From Planctomycetota bacterium (lineage in GTDB: Bacteria > Planctomycetota > SZUA-567 > H5-PLA8): a stretch of DNA of 64,000 nucleotides. The first letter of the stretch is position 1. Each line of letters opens with the position of its first letter. The notes below the pieces were generated by a model. It saw only the letters and a list, made by a program, of their open reading frames with translations. It made no database searches and had not been told where the DNA came from. The stretch covers positions 32,001 through 96,000 of the forward strand of contig JBBRPR010000015.1 of assembly GCA_038227875.1 (NCBI GenBank). Direction: 5' to 3'. Shown one piece after another: positions 20,035-49,627 of this stretch. Position numbers and translations under genes: made by a program.

Positions 20035-21513
20035 ATGGCTCGATTCGATCTCCGGACCGCCTTCAAATTCAGCGTGATCGCCATTTTTGCATGTTTTACC
20101 TGTTGGACGCGCGCCGAAGACGCGGCGGTGGCGCCGCGGATCGTCGATGGCACGCCGCAGCCGGTTTCCGCGTTTCCGGCGGTGGGCGTGATTGAAGATG
20201 ACACGCATTCGTTCACCTGCACCGGCACGCTGATCGATCCGACTCACGTGCTCACGGCCGGACACTGCGCCACCGATGAAGCGACCGGCAAGCCTGTCGC
20301 CGATGGGGCGGGGCGCTTTACGATTGGCGGCACCACGTACAAGACCGCTCGCATTTTCGTTCATCCCAGCTACAGCGGCGCGGTGGTCGGCTCGGACAAT
20401 GTTTTCGACGTCGCCGTTTTTCAGCTCGAACGCGCTGTGCCCAACGTGACGCCTGTGCCGATCAACCGGACTCCGCCCACGGTTGGACAGACCGTGACGC
20501 TGGTCGGCTTTGGCCTCGTCGGCTCGGGCAAATCCGGCACGCTGAAAAAAGTGCCGCCGCCCGGCATCGTCTACAAGGGCACCAATACGATTCAGACCAT
20601 CACCAACAGCGAACTGATCTGGACCTTCACGCAAGGCACCAGCAGCAATGCGCCGGGCGATTCGGGCGGGCCGGCGTTCGTCGATGTCAACGGCACGATG
20701 GCGATCGCCGGCATTACGTCCCTGGGCGAAACGATCGGCGGAAACAAGATCCGCTTTGGCGCGAAGAACTTCGACACGCGCATCGACACGCTGGCGCCGT
20801 GGATCGACCGCATCCTCACCGGCACCTCGCTGGACGTGCCGCCGACGTTCGTTTCGCCGATCACGATTAATCCCAATCCGGCGACCGTGGGTGATTCCGT
20901 CCAATTCACCGCTGCCGCGACGGATCCGGACGACGCGAGCATTTTCTACCTCTGGAATTTTGGCGACGGCACCGCCTCGACCGGATCGACGGTGGCTCAT
21001 AACTACGTCTTTCCCGGCACGTACGCGGTCTCGGTCACGGCCAGCGATATTGTGACGGGCGTGACCTCCAATGCCAACGTGGTGGTGTTGCCGCAGAGCA
21101 CCGGCACGATCAGCGTCGACAAATTGCAGATCGGCGTCTCGTTCTCCGCCTCGAACAAGGATTCGGTCTCGCTGCAGGCGACGTTGCAGCCGCTTTCGAG
21201 CCTCACGGCGCTGCCGGCGGTCGGCGTGTTAAGCATCGGTGGCGCACAGATTCAATTCATGCTCGACCAGCGCGGGCAGGCCAAAATTCCCCTGGGCATC
21301 TTGAAGTTCAATTTGCTGAAGGGCACGTTCACCGCAAACCTGCGCAACACAAATCTATCGAGTCAGCTCGGCAGCACGGGCATCATCAACACCACCGTGA
21401 CTAATGCCAAAGTGACCGTGCCCATCGGATTGATTTTGAATGGCGTGGCATTTCAGGCGGACAAGTCGCTGCTCTATTCCGCCAAGGCCGACAAGAGCGG
21501 CAAAGCGAAGTGA
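20035..21513 (+). CDS. Secreted trypsin-like (S1) serine protease plus PKD plus conserved C-terminal domain
   Basis: PRIVDG activation site, CTGTLI, VLTAGHC, DVAV and GDSGGP; PKD motif WNFGDG. Start ATG 20035. Confidence 0.92.
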   Translation: MARFDLRTAFKFSVIAIFACFTCWTRAEDAAVAPRIVDGTPQPVSAFPAVGVIEDDTHSFTCTGTLIDPTHVLTAGHCATDEATGKPVADGAGRFTIGGTTYKTARIFVHPSYSGAVVGSDNVFDVAVFQLERAVPNVTPVPINRTPPTVGQTVTLVGFGLVGSGKSGTLKKVPPPGIVYKGTNTIQTITNSELIWTFTQGTSSNAPGDSGGPAFVDVNGTMAIAGITSLGETIGGNKIRFGAKNFDTRIDTLAPWIDRILTGTSLDVPPTFVSPITINPNPATVGDSVQFTAAATDPDDASIFYLWNFGDGTASTGSTVAHNYVFPGTYAVSVTASDIVTGVTSNANVVVLPQSTGTISVDKLQIGVSFSASNKDSVSLQATLQPLSSLTALPAVGVLSIGGAQIQFMLDQRGQAKIPLGILKFNLLKGTFTANLRNTNLSSQLGSTGIINTTVTNAKVTVPIGLILNGVAFQADKSLLYSAKADKSGKAK

Positions 21514-21586
21514 TTGCGGATTGCGGATTGCGGATTGCGGATTGCGGATTGCGGATTGCGGATTGCGGATTGCGGATTGCGGATTG
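21512..21586. repeat. Heptanucleotide microsatellite (GATTGCG)x10 plus a partial unit
   Basis: Perfect tandem array beginning within the protease stop codon, between convergent genes. Confidence 0.97.
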
Positions 21587-21751
21587 GATGTCGATGCGCC
21601 GCGGATCGAAAGCGCGCGCTGTGAGGCGCGAGATTCACGCGCAAGCGGATTGATTATTATAATTGAGAAGGTGCTCAGCCCGAATGCGGTGCGCTGAGCA
21701 GGGAGCAAGCAAACGGCCACTTGCTCCCTGACACACGTTCGGGTCTGTGCG

Positions 21752-23524
21752 TCAGTTGGCGCTTCCGGAAATTCCCTTCCGTACGGTGTAGTTCACGGTG
21801 CGTGTGGTCTGGTAGGTCGTGGCGTTGACGATCAGGGTGATCATCATCCCCAGTTGCTGATTCTTTACCGTCGCGTCGCTCGTGAATCCCGACGACGCCA
21901 GAGTGGCGGCTAAGTCAGCTTTGTTCAACTTTAGTGTGAAAGCGGTCGAACCGGCGTGCGGTTTGGCGACGGTAAGTTCGCGGCTGCGGCCCCGGGCGTC
22001 CAGCTGGATCGCCAGCGAAATGCCGCTGGCATTCACGATCACCGAGGTGCTCCGCAAGGGTGTTTCATTCGGCAATGTGCCGCGGAGCAGGAATTGATCG
22101 TGCTGCGCGCGCTGGAAGTCGAGCTTTAACTTCAACGCTTTAATTTTCAGCGGCTGGATCAGCGGCGGCGGCGGAAACGGATCGACCGAACTTCCCGTCC
22201 CCACGACCACGGAGACCCATGCGGTGGTGACCTTTCCGCGTTCGTCACTCACGACCAGCAGCACCGCGTACGTCCCGTCCGCTGCGAAGGCATGCGTGAC
22301 GGAACTTCCCGGCGCGGTCGTGCCGTCGCCGAAATTCCACAGATAGCTGATCGTGTCGCCTTCGGCGTCGAACGCCGCAGCTGTAAACACGACATCCTGC
22401 AACACGGCCGCGTTGGACGGCGTCGCCAGCGGCGCGGAAATCAGCGTGGGCGCGCTGTTCGCACCGGTGTACCAGAAGCGCAGGACCTTCGCGGCGAGTT
22501 TTCCGCGCGCGGTATAGTCTCGATCGTCGGAAGCCGGAACGGGCGCTTTCCAGCCCCACCAGAACATGCCTTTCAGCCACGGTTCCTGCGCGAAAACTTC
22601 GAACGCGGCTTCGTAGCAATTGGCCTGCTCCTGCTGATCGGGCACCGCCGTCGCCACGTTCACGTAATAGGGCGTGATGTTCGTCCCCTGCGCGCTCTGG
22701 TAGCCGATCTCGGTGAACATCACGGGCTGGTTGAGCGAGGCCTGCCAGGTCCGGTACGCGAGCACCATGTCCTGCCCGAAGAAATCGTGGCGCCACGCGG
22801 CGGTCAGTTCGGACACGGTCGGATCGTTTTTCGATGTCAGCGGGCAGTAGACGTCGAGGCCCGCGATGTCCAGCAGTGGCCAGAACGAACACGTCAGGTA
22901 CTCATCGCCGATTTGAAACGCATTCGCCGCGTAGGTCAGCGGACCGGTATAGACGGCACGGATGTTCTGAATAATGGTCGCCCAGCGTGCCGCGTTGGCT
23001 GAAGGGGTCATTGTTTTCAACTCGCAGCCAATGCAGAACAGGTCCACGTGCTGCGCCTGCGCCAGCGCCGCGAAATGCATGATGAACGTGTTGTAGCTGG
23101 CAAACCAGGCGTCGATATCCGCGGGCGCAATCGTGCCGCGAAAAGTTCCATCGTAGATGTCCACCTGCGGTTTGAGCATCACGCGCAGACCGCGGGCGTG
23201 CATGTCCGAAATGGCCTGCACCAACGCGGCGTCCGTGGGCGTGACGCCCGTGTCCACATGGATCGTCGAAGCCGTCTTCGAATCCATGAACCATGTCGAC
23301 AGCAGCGACGCCCAGTTCGCTCCGGTGGCGCGCAGATCGGTCAGCGAAGCTCCGGAATCCGGCAGTTGGTACTCGCTGGTCTGATACGAAATGTAGGCCA
23401 CGCCGCGGTACGTGAATGCCGTCGCGTCGGTCGCTGCGAAAATTGAACGCGACCCCGCCGCAAGACACGCGATGCCCGCTGCAATCAAAATCAGATTTTG
23501 CCATCGCAATCGCACGCCACTCAC
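21752..23524 (-). CDS. Secreted glycoside hydrolase family 113 (beta-mannanase-like) plus PKD plus conserved C-terminal domain
   Basis: GLRVMLKPQVD, WFASY, FCIGCEL, TYAAN, FTEIGY, DQQEQANCY and GMFWW; PKD motif WNFGDG. Confidence 0.88.
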   Translation of the reverse strand: MSGVRLRWQNLILIAAGIACLAAGSRSIFAATDATAFTYRGVAYISYQTSEYQLPDSGASLTDLRATGANWASLLSTWFMDSKTASTIHVDTGVTPTDAALVQAISDMHARGLRVMLKPQVDIYDGTFRGTIAPADIDAWFASYNTFIMHFAALAQAQHVDLFCIGCELKTMTPSANAARWATIIQNIRAVYTGPLTYAANAFQIGDEYLTCSFWPLLDIAGLDVYCPLTSKNDPTVSELTAAWRHDFFGQDMVLAYRTWQASLNQPVMFTEIGYQSAQGTNITPYYVNVATAVPDQQEQANCYEAAFEVFAQEPWLKGMFWWGWKAPVPASDDRDYTARGKLAAKVLRFWYTGANSAPTLISAPLATPSNAAVLQDVVFTAAAFDAEGDTISYLWNFGDGTTAPGSSVTHAFAADGTYAVLLVVSDERGKVTTAWVSVVVGTGSSVDPFPPPPLIQPLKIKALKLKLDFQRAQHDQFLLRGTLPNETPLRSTSVIVNASGISLAIQLDARGRSRELTVAKPHAGSTAFTLKLNKADLAATLASSGFTSDATVKNQQLGMMITLIVNATTYQTTRTVNYTVRKGISGSAN

Positions 23525-23788
23525 CTCGACACATCTCTTAAACTCAAGATGTACTAATTGTTGTGGTTTCTTCAGCGCACTTCAAGTTTTAGTGTGGAAT
23601 TCGGGTGAAATAGGTTAACGCGCGCCGTCGAAACCCGCTCAAAAATATTTTGTCGATTTCCTTGGTGAAACCGCGACCGTGCGGGTGTGGAGGGTTGAAG
23701 TGCAGCGTGCGGAGCGGAACGGATGCATTCAGTTGTCAATAGTGTAGACTGCCAGCACACACGCACCGCACCTTCGGGGCAGGGCCTG

Positions 23789-25183
23789 ATGACGAGCGAA
23801 CGCGATGACGCTGCCTTGCTACTGGCGATCTCAAAAAATCGCGACCGTGAGGCCTTCGCCGAACTCTATCGTCGGCACGCCCAAGCCGGTTTGAATCTCG
23901 CACTCTACATCACCAACAACCGGGAATCGGCCGAAGAGGCACTTCAAGAGGCGTTGCTGCGCGTCTGGCGCTCGGCGACCCCGGTGACCGGCAACGGACG
24001 CGCGTGGGTACTCCGCATCGTGGTGCACGAGGCACTCCGCGCCATTCGCAAGAATCGCAAAGGAAAAGCAGTGCAGGCAACCTATGCAGAACCGGCCGCG
24101 CCGCGTGTGGATGCGCAGATCGAGCACAGTGAATTGCTCGCTGGCCTCAACTCCGTGCTGGAGAAGCTGCCGCAACTGGAACGCAAACTGGTGGTGATGA
24201 GTTTCGCGGGAGGATTGTCGCAGGACGAGATCGCCGATTCGCTTTCCATGCCGCAGCAGACGGTCTCCTACAAGCTGGCGGAAGCGCTCAAGCAACTCAA
24301 GCGGTCGCTGACGGAGCTGGGTTTTGCGGCGGCATTGCCGCTGGTCTCCGCAGAGGGCATCGTCGAAGCGTTGTCGGCCAAACCGGCGGCTGCTCCGCCC
24401 TTGAATCTGGCACTGCTTGATCGCATTCAATCCGACGCCCGGAAATCGATGCGTCGCGCCACGACCAAGTCGGGAAAATCCGCAATCGTCTGGAGCACGG
24501 GCGTGTTCGCCGTGGCCATCGCCGCGAGTGGTCTGTGGTACGCCACGGCGAAGCAACCGACCGCAACCGTTGCTCCACCGCCTGTCAGTAAAGCACCGGC
24601 CGACGACGGATGGCGAAACGTGGCCGTGTCGCCGATCGTGAAATTTCATTCCGAGATTCCCGCCAACGATATTGCGCTGAAGGCAATTCCGGATGGCGAT
24701 GGTGAGTGGAAAGTTTCACAGAATGCAGGCGGGACGCAGATTGAACAGGTCAATCCGCGCGTGACCGGCGCGCAATATATCACCGTCGGTGAATTGGTTT
24801 CGGGCGCCTGCGAATGGAGTGCGGACGTCGAAGAACCCGCCGCAGGCATCGCGGGCTACATGGCCCTACTGCCGCCCGTTGAAAACAAAATTATCGGCCT
24901 GCACCTGGCCCAGAACGGAACCGCGCCCCTGCGTATTGTTTCCTGGCCGATTCACAAAGGGGTTCGCGTGGTCTCGATCCGGAAGCTTCAAGACAAACTT
25001 TCGGTGGGCATGCAAACGCTCGTGACGCCCGACGGCACCTTCAACATTGGATTCTTCACCAGCTCGACGCTGACCATTCGGAATCTCCGCTGGAGATCGC
25101 TGCCGAAAGATTGGAAGCCCGAACTGGACCCGGAACTCAAGAAGCTCGGGCCCGCCGTATTCAAAACGGAAGCAGAGCGCTAA
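23789..25183 (+). CDS. ECF sigma factor with a fused TM helix and extracytoplasmic domain
   Basis: DREAFAELYRRH, AEEALQEALLRVW and GLSQDEIADSLSMPQQTV; TM AIVWSTGVFAVAIAASGLWY; ~200-aa C-terminal domain. Confidence 0.88.
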   Translation: MTSERDDAALLLAISKNRDREAFAELYRRHAQAGLNLALYITNNRESAEEALQEALLRVWRSATPVTGNGRAWVLRIVVHEALRAIRKNRKGKAVQATYAEPAAPRVDAQIEHSELLAGLNSVLEKLPQLERKLVVMSFAGGLSQDEIADSLSMPQQTVSYKLAEALKQLKRSLTELGFAAALPLVSAEGIVEALSAKPAAAPPLNLALLDRIQSDARKSMRRATTKSGKSAIVWSTGVFAVAIAASGLWYATAKQPTATVAPPPVSKAPADDGWRNVAVSPIVKFHSEIPANDIALKAIPDGDGEWKVSQNAGGTQIEQVNPRVTGAQYITVGELVSGACEWSADVEEPAAGIAGYMALLPPVENKIIGLHLAQNGTAPLRIVSWPIHKGVRVVSIRKLQDKLSVGMQTLVTPDGTFNIGFFTSSTLTIRNLRWRSLPKDWKPELDPELKKLGPAVFKTEAER

Positions 25184-25294
25184 CCAGCAGATTTAAAGCT
25201 TTCAAACAGCAGCAGGCGATCCCGCAGAGCCGGGCGCGCAGGGTGGCGTGTTGCCCAACGACAATCGATGGCGTTTTGGAATGGAGCGCACCGC

Positions 25295-25606
25295 ATGAGT
25301 AACGCCGCCTCATCACGAGCTACTTTCGACACCACCGCGCGGCAATCCGCGCCGTGGAGCGTGGACCGCTGGGGCCGCTTGCTCTCCGGGACGTTGATCC
25401 TGACGTTCACGCTGCTGGGACTGTTCCATCATCCCGTCTGGCTCTACGTCACCGCCTGCGTTTCGGCCAGCCTGATCATGACGTCACTGACCGACCGCTG
25501 CCTGGTGCGGCGAGCGCTGCTGGCTCTGGGCGCCAAAGAACGTGAAGACTTGTTTCTCCCCGGTGGAGTGGTCCGCGGATCGAATGTGAAAGCTCTTCAG
25601 AAGTGA
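25295..25606 (+). CDS. DUF2892 / YgaP-like small membrane protein
   Basis: WSVDRWGRLLSG, two TM helices and SLTDRC. Confidence 0.8.
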   Translation: MSNAASSRATFDTTARQSAPWSVDRWGRLLSGTLILTFTLLGLFHHPVWLYVTACVSASLIMTSLTDRCLVRRALLALGAKEREDLFLPGGVVRGSNVKALQK

Positions 25607-25634: not shown

Positions 25635-26339
25635 ATGCCAGAACTCAACGCTGTGGACACCGAAGTTCCGCGCCTCGACGAGAGACGCGTGCGCAGGGCG
25701 TCGAATATTTCCAGCGCACTGAGCGCCGTCGCGATGAACGACGAGCTTCAGGCAGACCTGTCGGAGATCGACGTGCGTCCGATCTGCAGTGACGCGGAAC
25801 TCGACGCCGTCTACCGCCTCACCCACGACGCCTACGTTGAACGGGGTTACTGCGCGCCGCAACCGGACGGCCGCTTGATTCACTACCCGCACCTGGACCG
25901 CATTCCTGAAACGACCATATTGGTGGCGTGTTCAGCTGGAGAGGTCATCGGAACGATTTCCTGGACCCGCGACAACGCGAACGGACTTCACGTCGATTCC
26001 GATTTCAAGACCGAGTGCGATCTCATTCGCGAGGAAGGGCGGGGCCTCGCGGCGTCGTGGCGAATCGCCACAAAGAACACCTGCCGCGCCGAGCGACGGT
26101 GTGTCATGGCCTTGATTCAGGCCGCGGTCAATCTCTGGTTCGAGTCCCGCGTGCCGACCTGCGTCTTTACCTTCAACCCGCGTCACGAACGCATTTACCA
26201 GCGCATGCTGAACATGACCACCGTCGCGCGCAGCGCCGGGACGCACGGCCTGAACGCCGCGCCGGCCGTGCTGATGCGCGCGGAGATTGAGAATCTTCCC
26301 GAGCGATTCGCGCGGGGTCTCACGTCGGTGAAGGCGTGA
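25635..26339 (+). CDS. FeeM-like N-acyl amino acid synthase / GNAT-fold acyltransferase
   Basis: AVYRLTHDAYVERGY, VIGTIS, GLHVD, NPRHERIYQRML and APAVLM. Confidence 0.72.
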   Translation: MPELNAVDTEVPRLDERRVRRASNISSALSAVAMNDELQADLSEIDVRPICSDAELDAVYRLTHDAYVERGYCAPQPDGRLIHYPHLDRIPETTILVACSAGEVIGTISWTRDNANGLHVDSDFKTECDLIREEGRGLAASWRIATKNTCRAERRCVMALIQAAVNLWFESRVPTCVFTFNPRHERIYQRMLNMTTVARSAGTHGLNAAPAVLMRAEIENLPERFARGLTSVKA

Positions 26340-26351: not shown

Positions 26352-29090
26352 TCAGCGGGCCATGCCGTTGCGCCCGGCTCGGGCCTTGTAGAGCAGTCCT
26401 TGAGAGGCCGAAAGTATCGAGCTGTTGAAGAGCACCTGGATCTTCAGGTTCACGGTGGTGGTCACGTCGTCGTTGACGAAACCCGCGGCGTTCAGCGATT
26501 TGACAAAATCGCCGCGGCTGAACTTCATCGTGAACTTCGCCGATTGCGCTGCGATCGAGCCTTGTTGTGCGCGCGCCTGTAACATGAATTGGCCCTTGGA
26601 GCCGATGCCCTTGCCGCGGGAGCTCAAGGTGAAGGAATCTTCCACGCCGCCGACATCCACGATCACTTTTTGACTGCCGAGTTGGATGTTGGCCGGCAGG
26701 TTAATCGTGCCCATCGCCATGATGCTGTCCGATCCACTGCGCAGGAAGTTCAGCTTGACCATCGCGCGCGTCACATTTAACGGCGTCGGTGCCGCGTTGG
26801 GATCGGTCACGGGACTGGAATTGGGATCATTCGGATTCGTTCCGGCGAGCAGTTCGATCGAATCGGAAACGCCGTCACCGTCGGAATCGTTCCCCGTGCC
26901 CAGCACCGGCGCTTTCACGGTAATGCTCGTGTTTGCACTGCTCGTGTCGCCGGCCGGATCGGAGACAGTCACTGTCGCGGTGTAGTCTCCGGCTGTGGCA
27001 TAGGAGTAGGTGACCGTCGGGCCCGAGCCGCTCCCGCCGTCTCCGAACGACCAGTCATAGGTGATCGACGGATCGCCCGTCGCCACCGCGGAGAACGTGA
27101 CCGTCTGTCCCTGGCTGGCGGGATTGGGCGTCGCGGTCGGCGGAGAAGTGAAGATCAACGTGCCCGGCCCGGCGGGAACCACCGTACCCAGGACCACGTA
27201 AGCCTGAGTCGCGTTGATCAACCCCGCGCCGGTGTAGGTGTCAGTGCCGCCCATCGGTTCACCTGGGTCCTCAGTAGGCGCCTGGGTGATGTCGGTTGCC
27301 GACGATTTAAACACGCCGAGCAATTGCGAGGGTGAGACGTGCGAGGCCTGCAGCAGCAGTGCGGCGACCGCCGCCGCGTTGGGCGCGGCGCAGGACGTGC
27401 CGGAGAAATTCGGGAAGCCGGAGTTGTCGGAATCGTTGCCGGTGCCGCCGGGGAACACCGTCGTGTCGATGTCATCGCACGCCGCGATGTCCGGCGTCTG
27501 GCGCATCACCACGCGCGGGTTGCCCTTGGTGTCGAAGTAATAGGGGACCGTACCGCCCTTGCTGGTGAAATTCTCCGGGATGGCTGGCTGTGCATAGTCG
27601 ATCGCGGCGACGCCGATGCAGGACGCTGCCGTGGGATGACCGTAGGAACTGATGGTGTTGCCGCCAACGGGATTGATCGTCGGCAGTGCTCCCGCGCCGT
27701 TGTCGTCGAAGACGATGCGCATGACGTTGCTGCCCGTTCCCGTGCTGCTGACGCGCGAGCCGGCGTGGTGATTGATCGCCAGGTACAGCGTCTTGGAATT
27801 GCTGGAGGTATTCTGGTAGTCGATCACTTCCATCGCATCGCCGGCGGGCGCGCCGACGGTGCCCTGGCGCTGTTCGCTCTTCATGATCACATTGGCGATG
27901 CTCGGGGCGCTGCAGAGATACAGATCGAGATCGCAATTCGATCCCGGTCCGAGATTGAAACTGCTCCACGGCTGATCCCATTGCAGGATCAGTGAAATCT
28001 GATCCTGGCCCGGAATGGCAATCGGTAAAAACGCACCGATGCCGTTGCCCCAGTCATGCAGACACGAACCACTTGGCGGAACGACGCCGTCGTCGCTCGT
28101 CACGCCGGGGTTGATGGGCTTGAATGTGGTCAGCACGCCCTGGTTGGCATCGTTGCCGAACGCGGAGAAGTGGGGGACACCCGCCACGCGATTGGCGGTG
28201 ATCGCCTGCGAGATGGGACCGTCCTGGAAGAAGGGTTCGTCTTCGAAGCCGATGTCATCGCAGGTGATCGTGCAGTGACCGGCGGTGCGCAGCAGGCCCA
28301 GGTTCATGCCCATCGCCGTCTGATCGTTGCCGCTCGACGCGAACGCCAGTGCCGCTCCCGGGGCGACATCGTGGATCACTTCCATCATGCCTTCGCCTTC
28401 GTCAGCTCCGCCGCCGGGTCCGAAGTCGACGACCTGAAACGAGGAGGGCAGATCGTGCGTGCCGCCGGGTCCGTTGGTCAGTTGCGGCTTGGTGCCGGTG
28501 ACGATCGCGTTGGGAGCGCTGCCGGTGACCGTGCCTTTGCCGACAGCGGTCGTATCCGTCACTGAATCGGAGACCACGCCGATGGTCTGGCCGGCGCCGG
28601 TCAGATTCTGCTGCGTGCGGAGCACATCCGACTTCATCACCGCGTCGCCTTGATTATTGGCGATGCCCTGTTGCCGCGCGCGCGGCCGGGGCTGCAGCTT
28701 GATCGACTTGATCACGCCCAGCGTGGAGAGCCCGTCGATCTGCGTCAACGTGGCGAGGACGCAGATGGTGTTCCACTGCGGAGCAGTGCTGGTGACCGTC
28801 GCGCCGGTGGCCTTGATCAGCGTCAGCAGATTTTCGGAGACTGGCGCATCGATCCGCACCGCGAACTGATTCACGTTGGCCGTGCTGCGCGAAACTGAGC
28901 GCGGGTGCGCGGCCTTGATGTCCGTGGCTGCCTGAGCATCGGTGGTGTTGTTGGCGTGCAAGGCGTCGAGCGCATCGAGCAGCCGCGCGTCGACTTTATG
29001 CGCGAGCGGGTGATCGGCCGCCAACGTCCCGGACATCGCGCAACTGAACAACAGACTTGAGATCAGAACGTTGAAAAACGTGCCTCGCAC
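26352..29090 (-). CDS. Secreted S8/S53-like subtilase plus PKD plus Ca-binding repeat plus conserved C-terminal domain
   Basis: IGVVSDS, DEGEGMMEVIHDVAPGA, SAFGN and FSGTSCAAP; PKD motif WSFGDG; DSDGDGVSDSIE..GTNP. Confidence 0.9.
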   Translation of the reverse strand: MRGTFFNVLISSLLFSCAMSGTLAADHPLAHKVDARLLDALDALHANNTTDAQAATDIKAAHPRSVSRSTANVNQFAVRIDAPVSENLLTLIKATGATVTSTAPQWNTICVLATLTQIDGLSTLGVIKSIKLQPRPRARQQGIANNQGDAVMKSDVLRTQQNLTGAGQTIGVVSDSVTDTTAVGKGTVTGSAPNAIVTGTKPQLTNGPGGTHDLPSSFQVVDFGPGGGADEGEGMMEVIHDVAPGAALAFASSGNDQTAMGMNLGLLRTAGHCTITCDDIGFEDEPFFQDGPISQAITANRVAGVPHFSAFGNDANQGVLTTFKPINPGVTSDDGVVPPSGSCLHDWGNGIGAFLPIAIPGQDQISLILQWDQPWSSFNLGPGSNCDLDLYLCSAPSIANVIMKSEQRQGTVGAPAGDAMEVIDYQNTSSNSKTLYLAINHHAGSRVSSTGTGSNVMRIVFDDNGAGALPTINPVGGNTISSYGHPTAASCIGVAAIDYAQPAIPENFTSKGGTVPYYFDTKGNPRVVMRQTPDIAACDDIDTTVFPGGTGNDSDNSGFPNFSGTSCAAPNAAAVAALLLQASHVSPSQLLGVFKSSATDITQAPTEDPGEPMGGTDTYTGAGLINATQAYVVLGTVVPAGPGTLIFTSPPTATPNPASQGQTVTFSAVATGDPSITYDWSFGDGGSGSGPTVTYSYATAGDYTATVTVSDPAGDTSSANTSITVKAPVLGTGNDSDGDGVSDSIELLAGTNPNDPNSSPVTDPNAAPTPLNVTRAMVKLNFLRSGSDSIMAMGTINLPANIQLGSQKVIVDVGGVEDSFTLSSRGKGIGSKGQFMLQARAQQGSIAAQSAKFTMKFSRGDFVKSLNAAGFVNDDVTTTVNLKIQVLFNSSILSASQGLLYKARAGRNGMAR

Positions 29091-32065: not shown

Positions 32066-32947
32066 TTAAGCTTCGCGCGCCGACTCCGACTGCTTCCGGT
32101 ACTGCAGCGGCGTCATTTTGAAGCGTTCGCGGAAGCTGCGGTGGAAATGCGAGATTTCGCCGAAGCCGCTGCGCAGCGCGGTGTCGAGAATCGAAACGTT
32201 GGTGTGCTGCAGTAGTCCGGCGGCGGTGCGCAGGCGGGCTTCGACCAGGAGTTTGAGAAAAGTTTTCCCGCATGCTTCCTTCACGGCGTGGCCGGCGCGG
32301 CTTTCGCTAAGATGGAGAACCTCCGCGAGATCTTCCAGTCGGACCGGCTGTGTATGCCGCATGTGGATGAAGCTGCGGATCAGCGAGCGGCGGGTGGACA
32401 GGTCGTCGTGGAACTTGTCGCGGTGGAATGGCGAATCGGTGCCGACGACGGCCATCTCGGTGCTCCAAAGTCGCAAGCGCGCGGCGAGTTGGCGCAAATT
32501 TTCGAGCACTGATTGCGCCTCGTCGTCGTCGATGGGTTTGGCCGTCGCGGTGCCGCGTGGCCAGGGCGATTTTCCAGGCATCGGTTGCGTGTCGCGGGCG
32601 GCGATGCTTAAGCCCGATCCGGCGCTGCGCGGACCGGCGAAGAAAATCCATTCCAGTTCGTGCGCCTGAAAGACCGGCACGACGAATTCGACGATCCCCG
32701 CGAAGCACACGTTGACGCGGCCCTCGGGCAGTCCGGAAATCTCGCGGCGTAGACGGCGTACATCGAAGTTCACGCACGCTTCGCCGTGATTCACTTTCAT
32801 CGCCGCGCAGAGCGGGTGAATGTGCGTGGCACGCTCGGGCGGCAGGAACGGGATTAGCGATCCACGCAAGTCGTGAACCGTCACCCGCATCTGGGTAAGG
32901 CGCTCAAATGCCTCGATGGCCTGCTCCGGAACCGCGAATTTGTCCAT
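32066..32947 (-). CDS. AraC family regulator with a PocR-like sensor domain
   Basis: HIHPLC...C...CFAGIVEFVVPV sensor; LEDLAEVLHLSESR and SGFGEISHFHRSFRERFKMTPLQYRK. Confidence 0.9.
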   Translation of the reverse strand: MDKFAVPEQAIEAFERLTQMRVTVHDLRGSLIPFLPPERATHIHPLCAAMKVNHGEACVNFDVRRLRREISGLPEGRVNVCFAGIVEFVVPVFQAHELEWIFFAGPRSAGSGLSIAARDTQPMPGKSPWPRGTATAKPIDDDEAQSVLENLRQLAARLRLWSTEMAVVGTDSPFHRDKFHDDLSTRRSLIRSFIHMRHTQPVRLEDLAEVLHLSESRAGHAVKEACGKTFLKLLVEARLRTAAGLLQHTNVSILDTALRSGFGEISHFHRSFRERFKMTPLQYRKQSESAREA

Positions 32948-33069
32948 AGCTCAAACGATAGCAGAATTTGCAACGTTTTCAACTTTTTGCACAACTCCCC
33001 CCGGCGCAACCAGTGATAGATTACGTGCGATTGCTCGAAGACGAGCTTTCAACCAGAGGACCCACCGCC

Positions 33070-33915
33070 ATGGAATTCACCGCCATCACCGCCGAACAGC
33101 GCAAACAATTTTACGAACAAGGCTACATGATCGTGCGCAAGGCGCTCGACGTAGACCAGATCGCCCGCCTGATCGACGCTGGCGACCGGCTTGTCGCGAC
33201 GGATCGCCTGCGCGACCGCCAGCGCAGCAACGATGGCCAGTACGACGGCTTCCGCAACGTTATTGCGCTCGACGACGCGTACATTCCACTGCTCACGCAC
33301 AACAAAACCGTGCCGCTGATCGCGCAGCTCTTCGGGCCCAACATCCACCTCGCCACCAGCCACCTCATTTACAAGCAGGCCGACAAACCCGGCACGCCTC
33401 TCAATCGCCGACTACCCGGCTGGCATCGCGACGTCTCGGGCACGCCGGAAGATCTCGGCCACGCGTACCTGCCGCGCCTGGAAATGAAGTGCGCGTATTA
33501 CCTCACGGATTTAAGCGAACCGAATTCCGGCGCGACGTTGCTTTCGCCGGGCAGCAATCAGCTGAAGAAGCCGTTGGTGATCAACAAAGAGACCGGCGAT
33601 CCCGACAATGTGCTCGAACCCTTGTTGCAGCCTGGCGACGCGGTGTTTTTCGAGAACCGCACGTGGCACGCCGGCGGCCTGAATTTGACCGGCCGCATGC
33701 GCAAGGCGGTGATGTTTGGCTACGCGTATCGCTGGATGCGCCCGATGGACTACCTGATCCAGCCGAAGGAACTCGTCAGCAAAGTCGATCGCATCGGCCA
33801 GCAGCTGCTTGGCGCGACGGAAGATCCGGACGGCAAGTTCGTCGCCGGCGGTGGCGCGGAACCGCTGATCGAGTGGTGCACGAAGCACGGCGTGAAGTAC
33901 GAGCCGGTCGCGTGA
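33070..33915 (+). CDS. Phytanoyl-CoA dioxygenase (PhyH) family Fe/2OG enzyme
   Basis: QFYEQGYMIV, WHRD (HxD), YLTD, GAT...PGS and PGDAVFF...WHAG. Start ATG 33070. Confidence 0.9.
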   Translation: MEFTAITAEQRKQFYEQGYMIVRKALDVDQIARLIDAGDRLVATDRLRDRQRSNDGQYDGFRNVIALDDAYIPLLTHNKTVPLIAQLFGPNIHLATSHLIYKQADKPGTPLNRRLPGWHRDVSGTPEDLGHAYLPRLEMKCAYYLTDLSEPNSGATLLSPGSNQLKKPLVINKETGDPDNVLEPLLQPGDAVFFENRTWHAGGLNLTGRMRKAVMFGYAYRWMRPMDYLIQPKELVSKVDRIGQQLLGATEDPDGKFVAGGGAEPLIEWCTKHGVKYEPVA

Positions 33916-33986
33916 AAGTGGTAGTTTTTAACATTCAGGCCAATTGGCCTGAAGGTATACCCTGTGCCAATTGGCACAGCGGTCGG

Positions 33987-35813: not shown

Positions 35814-35926
35814 GATTGACTCCAAACAGTTTGGGCAAAAATGTTAGCACGCAACGCTGGCGTCTCTAATTGATTTATGCGGGGCGGGCATTCAAGATCA
35901 TTGGAATCTTAAAAAGGAGCAATTTC

Positions 35927-42530: not shown

Positions 42531-43184
42531 ATGCTTGAATCGAATGCTATCAGTGCTTCCAATATCAGCTTGGCGCCTGCTCGGAGTGAGCCCGAGGTGG
42601 TGGTAACTGCTAAGCCTGTAGAGAGTTGCAGTGACGAGGTGCTGGTGTCTCGCAGTCGTAAGGGCGAGCGAGCGGCGTTTGAGGAACTGGTGCGCCGTAC
42701 GAGCAGATTGATTTACGCGCATCTGCTACTGGAGCTCGGCGACACGCATCGCGCGGAAGATTTGACGCAGGAGACGTATCTAAACGCGTACCGGGCGATC
42801 GGGCAGATGACCGACGCGGCCGGATTTCGCGCGTGGTTGTTGAAGATCGCGCATTCGGTTCTGGTCGATCACCTGCGGCGAACCGGCCGCAAGAAGCGTG
42901 CGGGAAAACATGCGGCGCCAGAGATGCTGGAGCAGGTTCCAGACGACGCGTCGGTGGATCCCGCGGCGCAGAGCGAATTGTCGGAAGCGCGTGCGCGGGC
43001 GCTGGAGTTGCTCCGCACGCTGCCGGAAGAGTACCGCCAGCCGTTGATGCTGCGGTACCTGGGCGGCGCGGATTACGAGACGATCGGCAAACAACTTGGA
43101 CTCACCAGCGGATCGCTGCGCGGCCTCCTCAGCCGGGGCCTGGCGCTGCTTCGAGCCGAATTTTTTAAGGAAAGCAAATCATGA
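42531..43184 (+). CDS. ECF sigma factor
   Basis: AFEELVRR, AEDLTQETY, FRAWLLKIA, LPEEYRQPLMLRY and YETIGKQLG. Confidence 0.93.
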   Translation: MLESNAISASNISLAPARSEPEVVVTAKPVESCSDEVLVSRSRKGERAAFEELVRRTSRLIYAHLLLELGDTHRAEDLTQETYLNAYRAIGQMTDAAGFRAWLLKIAHSVLVDHLRRTGRKKRAGKHAAPEMLEQVPDDASVDPAAQSELSEARARALELLRTLPEEYRQPLMLRYLGGADYETIGKQLGLTSGSLRGLLSRGLALLRAEFFKESKS

Positions 43185-46100
43185 AGAAGTCTGAACAGGA
43201 TTCCGATCACGCGTGGTTCAAGGAGCGCATCGGCGCGTTTGTCGTCGGAGCGCTGGAAGCCGACGAATCCGAACGCTTCAGTGCACACCGCACCGATTGC
43301 CCCGAATGCGCGACGCGTTTGGAGAAAATCGAACGCACGGACAAGGCGATGCAGGATGCCTTCGCCGGCATGCAGCCGGGCGGGCACATGGATGCCCGGA
43401 TCATTCAAGCTCTGCGCAAAGAAGACGCGAAGCGCTCGCGCTTTTCGCCTTTTTTTAGAAACGCCGCAGCCGCGTGCGCGGCGTTGGTGATGTGCGGAGC
43501 GATGGGGTATGTGATCGATGGGATGCAACGAGGGAAGTTTGATCATAAAGGTGATACTGTTGTGATGGTGACGGAGTTGGCGCGGCAAAAGGAAAAGCTG
43601 GAGACGACACCAACGGCTCCGGCGATTCCAAAGGCGGGTTACGTGTTTACGCCGACATCGCGGGCTCCGACTGATGCAAAATCTCAAATGACCTTGGGCT
43701 TTGCCGCAAATGCAGATCCGGGCAAGTGGGATAGCTCGGGCCGCGATCAGTTTGTCATCAACAACAACGGAACGATTTTTCAGAAAGAAGGTGCGGCGAT
43801 CAAGACGCCGGATGAAATGGCGCGCGACTTCAACGAGAAAATAACTTTGGGTGGGATCGGAAATGCTCGGACGCGTGATGTATCCGGGAAGGACGCGATA
43901 AATATGAACGACGTCAACGACGTGGTCGTTCCGTCAGACGTTCTCGCCAAGGCCGAACTGGGCGATCACTTCGAAACAATTGATCCAGACAAACCGGATT
44001 CGCATACCGCACAGGGGAATCCCGACGCTCTAACGTTCCACAGTGTAGCGGGAAAAGAGATAGCTGGCGGTGGCGGTTCGGATGGCTTGCGCATGGAGGA
44101 CATCATTGGCGTCGGTGGCCAGGCGAGTCCGGGCACCGGGGGCGGATGGGGTGGGGGAAGTGCAAGTTATGCGGACTTTACTTCACGAAACGGCGGCGGT
44201 CGCAAGCTGATGGTTAAGCGTCAACACGGTAGTGAGGATGTTGAAAAGAAGACAGATTCTTCCGTCTATTACACTTATCAGGATCAACAAAAGAATGCCG
44301 GCGAAGGTCAACAAGCGCAACAGGGCCAGCGCTTCAAGCCCACGGATCTGAATGCGAAGAAGGTGGTCGAAGATTCGGAAGCCAAGCGCCCTGCCGCCAA
44401 GACCGATCCAAAATCTTCTGCTGGTAAGCCGGTGGAGACCAAGGCCGACGGCGAGCAGCCGAAGAACGATCCGGCACCATCGCCCGCGCTGACCGCTGAA
44501 AAGGCCGCGCCGCGCTTCATCATCCGCAATGGCGAAATGGAATTCGAAGTCGACAGCTTCGACAGCGCGTACGTGCAGATCAGCAAAATCGCCGCGGAAG
44601 AAAGCGGCCTGATCGCGACGACCAACTCCGAGAAACTCGCCAACGGCAAAGTTCGCGGTTCGATCACGCTGCGCGTGCCGCCAGAGCACCTCGACGTCCT
44701 CGTCCTGAAACTCCGTGCGCTCGGCGAACTCAAGAATCAGCGCATCACCTCGCAGGACGTCTCGAAGCTGTACACCGACACAGAAAGCGAACTGCGCGCC
44801 GGCCGTGCGATGGAAGTGCGCCTGCTGGAAATGATCAAGACCGGTAAGGGCGACGTCTCCGATCTGCTCAAGGCCGAGAAGGAACTGGGCGTCTGGCGCG
44901 AGAAAATCGAGAAATTGGAAGGCGAGATCCGCTACTACAACAATCTCATTTCGCTCTCGACGCTGACGTTGACGCTCTCTGAGCGCGACATCAAGACGCC
45001 GACCTCGGCGACCGAACAGCAGACGGTCAACATGGGCATCGAGATCGACGACGTTGAGAAGGCGTACAACGACGCGCTGAAGGCGATCTCCGAACTCAAA
45101 GGGCGCGTGACGGCGTCCGAACTGAAGAAATACGAAGCCGGCCAGTTCGGCGCGTCGATCACCTGCTCGATCACGCCGGAAGCGGCGGGCCCGCTCCAGG
45201 ACCGCTTGAAGCAGCTGGGCCGCGTGGCACGGTTGAACGTCGAACACAAGCAGACGACGCTGGGCGGAACGGGTGCGCCGGCAGTGAAAGTGGAGCGCAA
45301 AGAGACGGAGTTCGTGATCTCGATCTACAATCTGGCCAACGTCGCGCCGCGGCTGACGCACCATATCAACCTCGCCGCTGCCGATCCGGAAGTCGCCTTC
45401 CAGGCGATTCTGGCGAGCATCGAAAAAGCCGGCGGCCGCGTCGTGACCTCGGCGCTCAACCGCGACAAGCCAGAGCAGACCACCGCGAATTTGAGCTTTG
45501 AAGTCAAGCGCGCTGACGTCGACGCGGTGCTCACCGCGGTCAAGAGCGGCGGTGAAGTGATGCAGCTCAATCGGACCGAAAACCCCGACACCAATAACGT
45601 TACGGAAGTGAAGGAAGGCTTTGTCGTGCAGATCTTCGCGCAGAGCCAGGTGCCGCCGCGAGAAAGCGCTCAGTTGCAGGTCGCGACGCTGCAGGTTGCG
45701 GAGTCCTACAGGAAACTGGCCGACGCGGTGCTCGCCGCGAAGGGACGCGTGCTGGTCTCGCAGCTCGATGAGAAGGACCGCCAGAACGTGGTCGGCCGCC
45801 TCGAATTCGAAATCGCGCGCACGGAAGTTCAGGCCATCGAAAAGCTGATCGGCACGCTGGGCGATCTGAATTCGAACGCCGTGCAGCGTTCGCCCGACAC
45901 GACCAGCACCATCGACAGCAAGAAACGCTACGACCTCACGCTCTTCAACGCCGAACGCCTGGCTCCGCGCGAGACCACGACGCTGGCGATTGAGCTCAAC
46001 GATGTCGACAAAGCCGCAACGGAGATCGCCGCACTGGCAGTGACCGCCAACGGCCGCACGATCGAATCCCACGTCTCGAAAGACCGCAGTGGCCGCGTGG

Positions 46101-46444
46101 TGGGGAAAGTGATCATCGACGTTCCGATGAGCAAGGGTGCGGAAACCGTCAGCGCCATCCGCGGGCTCGGCACGCTGCGCATGATCGAAGCCTCGCGCAA
46201 TTCGCAGGTTCCCGAAGGCCAGCTCACCCGCGCGCGCATCGACATTACGCTGGCCAACGCCGACTCCATCGTCCCCGACGACAAAGGCCTCTCGACGACG
46301 CTCCGCGGTTCGATCTCGACGACGGTGACGGGACTGCTCTGGAGTTTGCAGCTCATCATTGTCGGCCTCTGCTTCGTCGGACCGTGGGCGCTGATCATCT
46401 GGTTGGTGGTCCGCTGGTATCGGAAGTCGGCGGCGAAGGCGTAG
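43181..46444 (+). CDS. Putative anti-sigma factor: zf-HC2, TM, linker, DUF4349 and four further repeats, C-terminal TM
   Basis: ATGA overlap with the sigma gene; HRTDCPEC; IIRNGEMEFEV...ITLRVP...QDVSKLYTD...IEKLEG. Confidence 0.8.
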   Translation: MKKSEQDSDHAWFKERIGAFVVGALEADESERFSAHRTDCPECATRLEKIERTDKAMQDAFAGMQPGGHMDARIIQALRKEDAKRSRFSPFFRNAAAACAALVMCGAMGYVIDGMQRGKFDHKGDTVVMVTELARQKEKLETTPTAPAIPKAGYVFTPTSRAPTDAKSQMTLGFAANADPGKWDSSGRDQFVINNNGTIFQKEGAAIKTPDEMARDFNEKITLGGIGNARTRDVSGKDAINMNDVNDVVVPSDVLAKAELGDHFETIDPDKPDSHTAQGNPDALTFHSVAGKEIAGGGGSDGLRMEDIIGVGGQASPGTGGGWGGGSASYADFTSRNGGGRKLMVKRQHGSEDVEKKTDSSVYYTYQDQQKNAGEGQQAQQGQRFKPTDLNAKKVVEDSEAKRPAAKTDPKSSAGKPVETKADGEQPKNDPAPSPALTAEKAAPRFIIRNGEMEFEVDSFDSAYVQISKIAAEESGLIATTNSEKLANGKVRGSITLRVPPEHLDVLVLKLRALGELKNQRITSQDVSKLYTDTESELRAGRAMEVRLLEMIKTGKGDVSDLLKAEKELGVWREKIEKLEGEIRYYNNLISLSTLTLTLSERDIKTPTSATEQQTVNMGIEIDDVEKAYNDALKAISELKGRVTASELKKYEAGQFGASITCSITPEAAGPLQDRLKQLGRVARLNVEHKQTTLGGTGAPAVKVERKETEFVISIYNLANVAPRLTHHINLAAADPEVAFQAILASIEKAGGRVVTSALNRDKPEQTTANLSFEVKRADVDAVLTAVKSGGEVMQLNRTENPDTNNVTEVKEGFVVQIFAQSQVPPRESAQLQVATLQVAESYRKLADAVLAAKGRVLVSQLDEKDRQNVVGRLEFEIARTEVQAIEKLIGTLGDLNSNAVQRSPDTTSTIDSKKRYDLTLFNAERLAPRETTTLAIELNDVDKAATEIAALAVTANGRTIESHVSKDRSGRVVGKVIIDVPMSKGAETVSAIRGLGTLRMIEASRNSQVPEGQLTRARIDITLANADSIVPDDKGLSTTLRGSISTTVTGLLWSLQLIIVGLCFVGPWALIIWLVVRWYRKSAAKA

Positions 46445-47169: not shown

Positions 47170-47211
47170 AGTGGACTTTTCTAAAATCTCTATTAAATTG
47201 CTGAATAGAGT

Positions 47212-47256: not shown

Positions 47257-47267
47257 GTAAGTAGTAT

Positions 47268-47723
47268 ATGTTGTCGAAGAAAACGCAGTACGCGCTAAGA
47301 GCGATGATCTCTCTGGCGCATGAACAGCCAGGCCAACCGATCATGATCGCGGCGCTGGCGGAGAAGGAACAGATTCCCAAGAAGTTTTTGGAGCTGATCC
47401 TGCTCGACCTGAAGAGTATCGGGGTGGTTCAAAGTAAGAAGGGCAAGCAGGGCGGGTACTACCTAAGTCGAAAGCCTGCTGAGATTAAGCTCGGCCATAT
47501 CATGCGGGGAATCGAAGGACCGCTGGCGCTGTTGCCCTGCGTCAGTTTGACGGCATACGAACGCTGTGAAGGGTGCAAGGACGAACGGACCTGCGGATTG
47601 AGGTTGGTCATGAAAGACGTGCGAGACCAGACCGCAAAGATCTTGGACAACACCAGCTTGGCGGACGTGATGGATCGAGTCGAAGCAGAGAAGTCAAAGC
47701 CGGACATGATGTTCCACATCTAA
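47268..47723 (+). CDS. Rrf2 family transcriptional regulator with four Cys
   Basis: MLSKKTQYALRA, IPKKFLELIL, SKKGKQGGYYL and PCVSLTAYERCEGCKDERTC. Confidence 0.95.
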   Translation: MLSKKTQYALRAMISLAHEQPGQPIMIAALAEKEQIPKKFLELILLDLKSIGVVQSKKGKQGGYYLSRKPAEIKLGHIMRGIEGPLALLPCVSLTAYERCEGCKDERTCGLRLVMKDVRDQTAKILDNTSLADVMDRVEAEKSKPDMMFHI

Positions 47724-47780
47724 TTTTTTTAACACATAAGACGACTAAAACTATAGGCATAATAGTTAAGGATGAGACCC

Positions 47781-47969
47781 ATGAGTGCCACCAACGGACA
47801 TGCGATACACGAAAGCAAGAACGTCGACGAGCCGCTGGAGATCGTCCGTCGCGCGCTGCAAGGACTGCGCTTCGGATCCATCGAGATCATTGTTCACGAC
47901 TCGCGCGTCGTGCAGGTCGAGCGCAAAGAAAAGGTGCGCTTGGTCTCGGACGCGCCGGGACGGAGATAG
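47781..47969 (+). CDS. YezD/OscA (DUF2292) family small protein
   Basis: ALQGLRFGSIEIIVHDSRVVQVERKEKVR signature; sulfur-uptake context. Confidence 0.92.
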   Translation: MSATNGHAIHESKNVDEPLEIVRRALQGLRFGSIEIIVHDSRVVQVERKEKVRLVSDAPGRR

Positions 47970-48043
47970 AAACGTGTTTTCCCCGGGGACCAATTGGTCC
48001 CCAGGTTAAACAGCGCTGCCTCCCTTATTAGAGGCAGCTTGGA

Positions 48044-48109
48044 GCTGACTGCGATGACAGAAGCATTTAACGAATGGACTCAAGTAAGCCGACCCGTGCG
48101 CGGAGGTTT
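48044..48109 (+). ncRNA. Two tandem candidate cis-regulatory RNA hairpins with a GA/A internal loop
   Basis: GCT-GA-CTG-cgatga-CAG-A-AGC (48044-48064) and AAGCC-GA-CC-cgtgcgc-GG-A-GGTTT (48086-48109). Confidence 0.5.
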
Positions 48110-48131
48110 GCGAACAGAGGAACGCAAACGT

Positions 48132-48551
48132 ATGAGCCAGTCATCTGAAATCGTACGCGTGTTTGGAGCGCGTGTAAATCCGGCGGTCATGGTTGTGGAA
48201 GCGGACACCGACACTCCGCATTCCCTGACGCAGACCTTGAAGGCGCGCGGCTTCCGCGTGGCGCTGGCGCAATCGGTGCGCGAAGCCGAAGAGATGCTCC
48301 ACGATCTGCGCGACCTGCACCTGCCGGTGGACGGGTTGCTGGCCGACTACCGGCTGAGCGACGGATTCGGCTGCCGGATTCTGCGCCGCTTCCAGGACGA
48401 ATTTCCGAATCTGCCGGCCGCGGTGATGGTCGACGGTGAAGACGTCAGCATCGAATTGTGGGCGCGCTCGCGCAACATTCTGCTGCTGCGAAAACCGCTG
48501 GCACTGCCGGCGTTGAGTCCCTGGCTGGAGCAACTACCCGTTCCGGCCTGA
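48132..48551 (+). CDS. Single-domain response regulator receiver-like protein
   Basis: VMVVEAD, LLADYRLSDGFG and LRKPL. Confidence 0.82.
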   Translation: MSQSSEIVRVFGARVNPAVMVVEADTDTPHSLTQTLKARGFRVALAQSVREAEEMLHDLRDLHLPVDGLLADYRLSDGFGCRILRRFQDEFPNLPAAVMVDGEDVSIELWARSRNILLLRKPLALPALSPWLEQLPVPA

Positions 48552-48560
48552 TGCAAAAAC

Positions 48561-48583
48561 GCCGACCGCCAATGCACGGAGGC
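48561..48583 (+). ncRNA. Candidate GA/A internal-loop hairpin, copy 3
   Basis: GCC-GA-CCG-ccaatgca-CGG-A-GGC. Confidence 0.5.
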
Positions 48584-48646
48584 TCAAAACAAATTTTCCG
48601 AAGGCCACCAGACTGCTGGGCTTTCGCAGGGAGAGGGGAAACCGAC

Positions 48647-49627
48647 GTGGATGTAAGACGGACGTTAATGGCGCCAATCGTGTTGGCGCTCATCGCAAGC
48701 GCAACAACCGCATTTAGTCAGGAGGGCTTGGAAACACCGGAGGCAGGCCATCGAGCGATCGCGTTGACGCCGAGCGTCTCCGGCGCATCGTTGTTCCCGC
48801 TGAAGAATCCGGGCATCGTGACGCTGGGCACACTTTCGATTCAGAACCGCATCGACTTTGCCATCAGCGCGAGTTCGACGTCGAATGGCAATCTTGCCTA
48901 CTCGTGGAATTGGGGCGACGGCACCCCCAATGGCACGGGCCCTTTTCCAAATCACACGTACATCGTCGCCGGAATCTACAACGTCACAGTGACGACGACC
49001 GAGACAATTAAAGGCGCCGTGGCCAACACTCGCACCGACACGATTGTGACCACGGTGACCGACGCAGTGAAGGCCAACAAGCTTCAGACCAATGAGAACT
49101 GGGCGACGGCCAGCGGCAACGACTCGTTGCGCTTTCAGGGCACGCTTCACATTCCATCCGGGGCGAAACTTGCCGGACAGGTCGTGCAAATCAGCCTGGG
49201 AAATCTGAATCTGCCATTCAACCCTGCCAGCCTGGGCACCAACGACGGCGTAGTGTTCACCTTTACCCTCAACGACAAGGGTATCGCGACGTTCACCACA
49301 AACGCCAATGCCATCTACGATCCCACCACCGGTTCCAGCCCAACGACTGGCACCAGCGCGTTGAGTCAGGCCAGCGGCAAGGGCCAGTTCAAGCTCGCCT
49401 ACCGCGCTCGCGCCGGCGGTACGGCATTCGTTGACGCGCCGTTCCTGCTGACGCTCAAGGGCGGCACGTTTGCGAAGGCGCTGGCCAACGAAGGCGTCAC
49501 CAACGTCGACGCCAGCCGCGAAAACGTGCGCATCACGGCACGTGTCCTGGCTTTCAACATCCTGTACCAGTCCGGCATCAATTCTCTGTTCTCCTCCACG
49601 AAGGGTGGAAAGGGGAAGACGCGATGA
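48647..49627 (+). CDS. Secreted PKD plus conserved C-terminal domain protein with no catalytic domain
   Basis: GTG start behind GAGAGGGG gives signal peptide MDVRRTLMAPIVLALIASATTAFS; PKD motif YSWNWGDG..HTY..AGIYNVTVT. Confidence 0.82.
   Translation: MDVRRTLMAPIVLALIASATTAFSQEGLETPEAGHRAIALTPSVSGASLFPLKNPGIVTLGTLSIQNRIDFAISASSTSNGNLAYSWNWGDGTPNGTGPFPNHTYIVAGIYNVTVTTTETIKGAVANTRTDTIVTTVTDAVKANKLQTNENWATASGNDSLRFQGTLHIPSGAKLAGQVVQISLGNLNLPFNPASLGTNDGVVFTFTLNDKGIATFTTNANAIYDPTTGSSPTTGTSALSQASGKGQFKLAYRARAGGTAFVDAPFLLTLKGGTFAKALANEGVTNVDASRENVRITARVLAFNILYQSGINSLFSSTKGGKGKTR

Follow-up and report, generated by a model that had tools for sequence, protein, structure and literature searches.

Four secreted proteins encoded in a 64,000-nucleotide stretch of a Planctomycetota bacterium genome (hereafter the window) end in copies of a shared C-terminal domain, referred to here as the CTD. 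The CTD is an unnamed, lineage-restricted, polycationic beta-sandwich domain of about 140 residues, which in this genome is attached, mostly as a single terminal copy behind a PKD domain, to more than 100 proteins of many kinds whose other parts are acidic. The CTD marks about one in 70 genes of a 9-Mb genome and defines a set of cargo proteins in silico, and so offers a way into the question of how Planctomycetota, with their unusual envelope, position the very many enzymes and adhesins that they export.

Size, position and range of the family

The 9.34-Mb assembly, in which the window is part of contig 15, has 176 contigs (completeness 88%, contamination 4%). The original prediction, read from the letters of the window, had held that a trypsin-like protease (P0001), a glycoside hydrolase (P0002), an S8-like peptidase (P0003), and a small non-catalytic protein (P0004) share a signal peptide, a PKD domain, and a homologous tail. 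The four ORFs (open reading frames) lie where they had been placed, and the final 12 residues quoted for them are exact. Signal-peptide-like N-termini were read in all four proteins, and all four match PKD models in Pfam (E 1e-8 to 2.5e-17), while their final ~140 residues are covered by no model in Pfam or NCBIfam. When aligned, the tails share 23–25% identity, with BLASTP E values of 6e-9 for P0001 and P0002, 8e-8 for P0001 and P0003, 4e-14 for P0002 and P0003, and 1e-8 for P0003 and P0004. The direct pair P0001–P0004 is not significant (E 0.018), and the P0004 tail is therefore linked to the set via P0003.

A profile of the four tails was run on all six-frame ORFs of at least 70 residues at E ≤ 1e-3 and then iterated. 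The first pass matched 84 ORFs, far above chance, confirming the common architecture claimed for the four proteins; at convergence, 113 ORFs of the whole genome were matched, in line with the expectation that a hidden Markov model of the four C-termini would find many relatives here. Every one of the 113 carriers has one copy, and in 106 of them the CTD ends no more than 16 residues from the stop. The CTD family also forms the largest shared-C-terminus cluster of the genome (97 ORFs) when the last 170 residues of the 7032 ORFs of at least 300 residues are compared. By a crude signal-peptide rule, 74 of the 113 carriers have a signal-peptide-like first start, compared with 635 of 2376 other long ORFs; most carriers begin in a signal-peptide-like way and their cargo is very diverse, as had been predicted.

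The seven non-terminal carriers fall into group A (L073, L076, L080, L092) and group B (L102, L112, L113), each with an unannotated C-terminal extension that has no Pfam match. The group A extensions end in a conserved ...RKNANAKxWKxR tail. The possibility that the extension is a second CTD was examined with hhalign and set aside: group A gave a weak hint (probability 27%, E 6.6e-4), and group B has no detectable relation to the CTD.

In public sequences, 3120 cluster representatives carry the CTD at E ≤ 1e-3, 2424 at 1e-10, and 467 at 1e-30, among 1.84 billion. Of the best 150 of the 3120, 148 have at most 13 residues beyond the last copy and 140 have a single copy. The original expectation that the domain would be C-terminal is thus very nearly borne out: it holds for these 148 and for the 106 genomic copies above, and the exceptions in the genome are the seven internal copies. 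A PKD domain lies upstream in 74 of the 117 best-150 representatives that have room for one, with a modal gap of ~48 residues. Several short public proteins (360–500 residues) consist of two tandem terminal CTDs and little else (P0006, P0008, P0011, P0016, P0021, P0071, P0128, P0152), and two other representatives (P0005, P0034) have one copy near each end.

The range of the domain is narrow. Among 201 Planctomycetota genomes sampled evenly over the phylum, 17 were positive at 1e-5, comprising all three genomes of the window's family (15 to at least 19 matches each) and members of five other families; a related planctomycete metagenome-assembled genome (MAG) has 14 CTD matches. By its AccC, the window is nearest (77–79%) to three MAGs that bear the label Planctomycetota or Planctomycetia. 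The profile matched none of the 151 sampled Verrucomicrobiota genomes, and none of one Bacteroidota, one Acidobacteriaceae, and one Nitrospira genome. Public names of the carriers reflect the cargo alone. The nearest ESM Atlas clusters to the CTD are without names, a word-indexed homologue search with a single CTD returned the query alone, and a full-text literature search, judged by titles and the openings of abstracts, found no such domain described.

Predicted fold, charge and modular context

The CTD of P0003 was modelled by AlphaFold2 (AF2) with an alignment of 108 copies (pLDDT 97.6, pTM 0.89) as a sandwich of ~11 strands with one short helix at positions 96–102. Mean column identity among the 108 copies is 18%, and what is kept is mainly Gly, core aromatics, and D21: conserved columns include D21 (104 of 108 copies), G27, G47, the F-T-L-D-x-K-G turn (53–59), F86, G103, Y126, Y/F134, and G142. 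Most copies (84/108) are free of cysteine. In the model the last residues form the final beta-strand of the globular domain, and neither the model nor the sequences have a hydrophobic helix there. The helix ending in L-x3-G and the final hairpin that had been read from the four sequences agree with the model (helix 96–102, G103, strands 109–144). The exact register claimed for the last 12 residues is true of these four proteins only; among 102 genomic copies, the tail length shifts by 1–3 residues, with Tyr at −12 in 21 and Gly at −5 in 44 and at −4 in 23. It is the aligned columns near the end that are conserved, with Y/F134 in 85 and G142 in 91 of the 108 copies.

For the model, structure searches turned up beta-sandwiches of a generic kind only. 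Foldseek gave no match at E ≤ 1e-3 (best TM about 0.4), and a profile search of the PDB with the CTD gave no match (best E 0.35). The best VIA-align result was a LEA14-type sandwich (Z 6.6, with 112 residues aligned at a root-mean-square deviation [rmsd] of 3.2), a likeness that chance arrangements can also reach, and no T9SS CTD was among the 50 rows listed.

The net charge of the domain is strongly conserved. Of the terminal copies in the genome, 102 follow at least 100 residues of cargo; these CTDs have a median net charge of +11 (positive in 101), a median isoelectric point (pI) of 10.2, 9.5% Lys, and 1.9% Arg. The cargo upstream of them is acidic in 101 of the 102 proteins, with a median pI of 4.76 and a Lys content of 1.9%. 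Lys is the final residue in 61 of the 102 copies, and either Lys or Arg in 69. The contrast is the same in the top 150 public representatives: the CTD is positive in 143 of 150 (median +11), all of 109 upstream parts are negative, and the final residue is Lys in 105 of 150. As a control, the last 145 residues of 2376 other ORFs of at least 500 amino acids have a median charge of 0, and only 34 of these ends combine a charge of at least +8 with at least 8% Lys. A polycationic CTD on acidic cargo is a new observation, and its charge and the fixed PKD-TSP3-CTD module described below are its distinguishing marks.

Cargo was surveyed by a whole-protein Pfam scan of the first 46 of the 113 carriers and of the seven carriers with extensions. 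The first 46 include NHL and Kelch propellers, glucose/sorbosone dehydrogenase (GSDH), GH44, S8-like peptidases, and PATR repeats, together with beta-helices, Ig, He_PIG, cadherin-like arrays, CBM6, LamG, and CAP. In nearly all of them a PKD domain stands directly before the CTD, often with TSP3 between the two. With a locally built PKD profile, a PKD domain was found upstream of the CTD in 86 of the 113 carriers, in 70 of them at a gap of 5–66 residues, and 87 of the 106 PKD-bearing ORFs of the genome carry the CTD. The linker contains a DxDxDG calcium-loop motif in 23 of 109 genomic copies and in 75 of 122 public representatives; in 15 genomic copies, a Gly/Ser-rich linker takes the place of the calcium loop.

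The PKD-TSP3-CTD module (264 residues) was modelled by AF2 with pLDDT 95.7 and pTM 0.87, and both linker and TSP3 were ordered. The model suggests that the three parts may form a fairly rigid composite module rather than beads on a string. When compared with PKD structures, the module model gave Z scores of 10–12 and rmsd values of 1.4–1.9, and a search with the whole module returned PKD matches only; the PKD part resembles the PKD structures of ColH and PrtV (Z 10–11).

Comparison with known systems and possible roles

The layout of the carriers is similar to that of proteins with the type A CTD of the Bacteroidota type IX secretion system (T9SS), in which a terminal beta-sandwich is found on signal-peptide proteins with unrelated cargo, often behind an Ig-like spacer, and for which cleavage by PorU and attachment to A-LPS are further marks. 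Unlike the T9SS CTD, the planctomycete CTD is about twice as long (142–151 vs. 72–75 model positions), and its net charge of +11 differs from that of 30 genuine T9SS CTD stretches (median −4, Lys 4.3%). Por_Secre_tail (TIGR04183/PF18962) matched none of the 108 CTD copies at E ≤ 0.01 in Pfam and NCBIfam, and hhalign rejected the CTD as a relative of the 30 genuine T9SS CTDs (probability 0.45%, E 0.13). The window's genome has one Por_Secre_tail hit, which is weak and internal. The CTD is outside the T9SS CTD family. With hmmscan, the 108 copies gave seven scattered weak hits in Pfam, in one or two copies each (best E 5e-4), and no match to a carbohydrate-binding module (CBM), PPC (PF04151), dockerin, or cohesin; apart from scattered weak hits, NCBIfam models did not match them either. 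As had been supposed, the domain matched no named CBM, Ig, or T9SS CTD family.

Searches for the machinery of such a system were also made. GldM (TIGR03517) was not found in the carrier genomes G000 (88% complete), G066 (94%), and G204; as a control, the same search in the Bacteroidota MAG G202, which has no Por_Secre_tail match, gave E 2.3e-90. The SprA search was silent in all genomes, controls included, so it is uninformative. A sortase or exosortase tag (LPXTG, PEP-CTERM) was considered and rejected, as the tail has no hydrophobic segment and Exosortase_EpsH was not found in the genome. The genome contains nine secretin-domain ORFs, so that a type II-like export route is available; nothing ties the secretins to the CTD. 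The original idea of a system analogous to T9SS, and different from it, is upheld as regards the T9SS-like organisation, the separate family, and the failure to find GldM and exosortase, and is unsupported as regards function, since no translocon, sortase-like enzyme, or receptor was found. Overall, an export signal explains the data no better than a binding or retention module does, and perhaps less well.

Two other arrangements are comparable in part. Secreted bacterial peptidases and the clostridial collagenases are built from a catalytic domain, PKD, and a terminal PPC or collagen-binding domain, and the planctomycete carriers have the same order of enzyme, PKD spacer, calcium-binding linker, and terminal beta-sandwich. 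They differ in that the planctomycete module is found on more than 100 proteins of many kinds and in that its terminal domain is strongly basic. S-layer homology (SLH) domains and Gram-positive wall-binding repeats are basic modules that anchor proteins non-covalently to the envelope; their typical setting is a monoderm or SLH-bearing envelope, they are usually repeated, and they are not confined to the C-terminus. The fold and sequence of the CTD are unrelated to theirs, and the likeness would lie in the proposed principle, by which a positive module may attach secreted proteins of many kinds to an anionic polymer of the envelope.

The homology of the tails, their copy number and terminal position, the diversity of the cargo, the predicted fold, the charge contrast, the taxonomic range, and the distinction from T9SS are directly supported. 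We infer a localisation role for the CTD, and charge-based binding as its means. The likeliest of the roles considered, and quite possibly the true one, is that of a handle for localisation, by which the CTD would attach non-covalently, and largely by electrostatic attraction, to an anionic polymer of the envelope. One terminal copy behind a stalk on ~100 unrelated exported proteins is the layout of a localisation tag. Because the charge is strongly conserved, the sequence poorly so, and the cargo oppositely charged, charge-based binding is the most economical mechanism; a kept charge on a little-conserved sequence suits an electrostatic role of a general kind better than a precise code between proteins. 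A module of PKD and CTD, with or without a TSP3 calcium loop or a Gly-rich linker between them, would have been grafted onto more than 100 Sec-exported acidic proteins. Following export by the signal peptide, the Lys-rich CTD would bind an anionic envelope component, for which lipopolysaccharide, acidic surface polysaccharide, and peptidoglycan are candidates, and the PKD/TSP3 stalk would hold the enzyme or binding domain away from the envelope surface.

Several results weigh against such a handle. Seven of the 113 genomic copies are followed by 169–210 more residues, so terminal placement is not obligatory, and two CTD copies are present in 10 of the best 150 public representatives. A permissive signal-peptide test, which accepted any start in the first 400 codons, passed 100 of 113 carriers and also 1559 of 2376 controls, and is uninformative because so many controls pass. 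Binding outside the cell, to anionic substrates or particles, would account for the charge contrast just as well. In addition, our searches identified no binding partner, receptor, or envelope polymer for the CTD, and the gene neighbourhoods offered no candidate: when every ORF lying up to 4 kb from one of the 113 carrier genes was included in a clustering, the nine most populous recurrent families, ECF-sigma-like and FeeM-like ones among them, were no commoner there than their genome-wide numbers predict (p 0.075 to 0.97).

If the domain instead addressed folded cargo to an outer-membrane translocon, possibly to be removed later in the manner of T9SS, its conserved final strand and Lys-rich end could be part of the signal. 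The T9SS-like arrangement of signal peptide, diverse cargo, Ig-like spacer, and shared terminal beta-sandwich would agree with this, as would the 113 copies, which are of the same order as the Por_Secre_tail copies in three Bacteroidota genomes (97, at least 150, and 99). We consider such a secretion signal doubtful, given that neither a translocon candidate nor, in the three carrier genomes, GldM was found, and that no neighbour family is enriched; the double and non-terminal copies noted above also count against it, and specific recognition would not need a conserved net charge with an otherwise free sequence. It is similarly unlikely that the CTD is a CBM-like module fixing secreted enzymes or adhesins to extracellular anionic polymers (sulfated or uronic polysaccharides, humic matter, mineral surfaces, or extracellular DNA) rather than to the cell. 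Many CBMs are beta-sandwiches, the CTD is polycationic, and several carriers are glycoside hydrolases or bear CBM6 (GH113, GH44). However, none of the 108 copies matches any Pfam CBM family, no conserved platform of exposed Trp/Tyr is evident, and the conserved aromatics look like core positions. CBMs also occur at either end and in arrays, whereas the CTD is nearly always terminal and single, and carriers of non-enzymatic kinds (NHL, Kelch, PATR, Ig) are numerous.

The terminal residue raises another explanation, as the terminal lysine of Braun's lipoprotein is joined to peptidoglycan by an L,D-transpeptidase. Covalent attachment of the same kind would keep the carriers in the enlarged planctomycetal periplasm, and Lys is indeed far more frequent at the last position (61/102 genomic copies and 105/150 top representatives) than within the domain (~10%). 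The genome has two matches to YkuD-type transpeptidases, but these enzymes are equally present in two sampled genomes without the CTD and are therefore not discriminating. Since 30–40% of copies end otherwise and the modelled tail is within the last beta-strand rather than free, this linkage is very unlikely. Little more can be said for a docking or oligomerisation module of a scaffold or surface lattice, working by a logic like that of dockerin and cohesin, which we regard as highly improbable. The short representatives made mostly of two CTDs (P0006, P0008, P0011) would suit it, as would the TSP3 calcium loop before many copies (in 23/109 here and 75/122 representatives), which we take to resemble the calcium loops of dockerins; the net charge of +11 on the copies argues against self-association, no acidic partner family was found, and no Pfam dockerin or cohesin matched the 108 copies.

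Beyond these mechanisms, the CTD might be the cargo tag of a planctomycetal sorting route independent of T9SS, with more than 100 substrates per genome and machinery of an unnamed family, although we think this improbable. If a dedicated pathway does exist, it would be the second domain-type C-terminal sorting signal in diderms, besides T9SS. If the CTD is a plain anchor, it still merits a family entry because ~3100 public representatives carry an unannotated end of 140 residues.

Features of the window and neighbouring genes

The carrier proteins and their domains in the window are listed in Table 1. The P0001 ORF opens at 19993, with its signal-peptide-like start at 20035, and the P0004 ORF opens at 48458, with a signal-peptide-like GTG start at 48647. 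Carrier genes are scattered over the genome, with nine pairs less than 3 kb apart.

Table 1. CTD-bearing proteins of the window and their domains (coordinates are positions in the window).
Feature	Position	Strand	Evidence
S1 (trypsin-like) protease P0001, secreted, PKD + CTD	20035..21513	+	Trypsin, residues 50-271, E 2.5e-25
PKD of P0001	20866..21087	+	PF00801/PF18911, residues 292-365
CTD (polycationic) of P0001	21103..21510	+	Profile match, 176 bits
GH113 glycoside hydrolase P0002, secreted, PKD + CTD	21752..23524	-	GH113, E 1.8e-56
PKD of P0002	22202..22429	-	Pfam, residues 366-441
CTD of P0002	21755..22165	-	Profile match
S8-like peptidase P0003, secreted, PKD + TSP3 + CTD	26352..29090	-	Peptidase_S8, weak, E 1.6e-6
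PKD of P0003	26916..27140	-	Pfam, residues 651-725
Bacterial TSP3 calcium-binding repeat, PKD-CTD linker of P0003	26823..26888	-	PF18884, residues 735-756, E 6e-7
CTD of P0003 (copy modelled by AF2)	26355..26789	-	Beta-sandwich, pLDDT 97.6, pTM 0.89
Small secreted PKD + CTD protein P0004, no recognised catalytic domain	48647..49627	+	Pfam: PKD only
PKD of P0004	48842..49045	+	Pfam, residues 129-196
CTD of P0004	49052..49624	+	Profile match; insertions of ~50 residues

Beside P0003 there is an ECF (extracytoplasmic function) sigma-like gene (23723-25180, +, 486 residues), followed by a small ORF (25268-25603, +) and a FeeM-type N-acyl amino acid synthase (25635-26336, +, E 5e-34). The genome has 19 FeeM-like ORFs, 15 of them with a sigma-like gene directly upstream on the same strand, and this cassette of regulator and acyl-amino-acid synthase is recurrent in the genome. 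It was considered as part of the CTD system and rejected, as it is not enriched near CTD genes (p 0.075, the best value of the neighbourhood comparison).

A second ECF sigma gene (42531-43181, +) has a stop that overlaps the start of a 1087-residue protein (43181-46441, +) with DUF4349 as its sole match (E 5e-58); by appearance, the giant protein is an anti-sigma-like partner of the sigma factor. With a local profile at E ≤ 1e-10, ~139 ECF-sigma-like ORFs were counted in the genome, and the paralogue families are very large. The 967-residue ORF at 32916-35819 (+) has a low GC at third positions (0.53) and overlaps 33987-35825 (−), which has a PQQ_2 beta-propeller match (E 2e-24); the plus-strand ORF is probably not a gene. 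Lastly, a 1109-residue protein (9990-13319, −), whose sole Pfam match is a GH123 N-terminal domain (E 1.5e-8), adjoins a GntR/LacI-type regulator and a 922-residue PQQ_2 propeller protein, and this neighbourhood may be a small glycan-use cluster.

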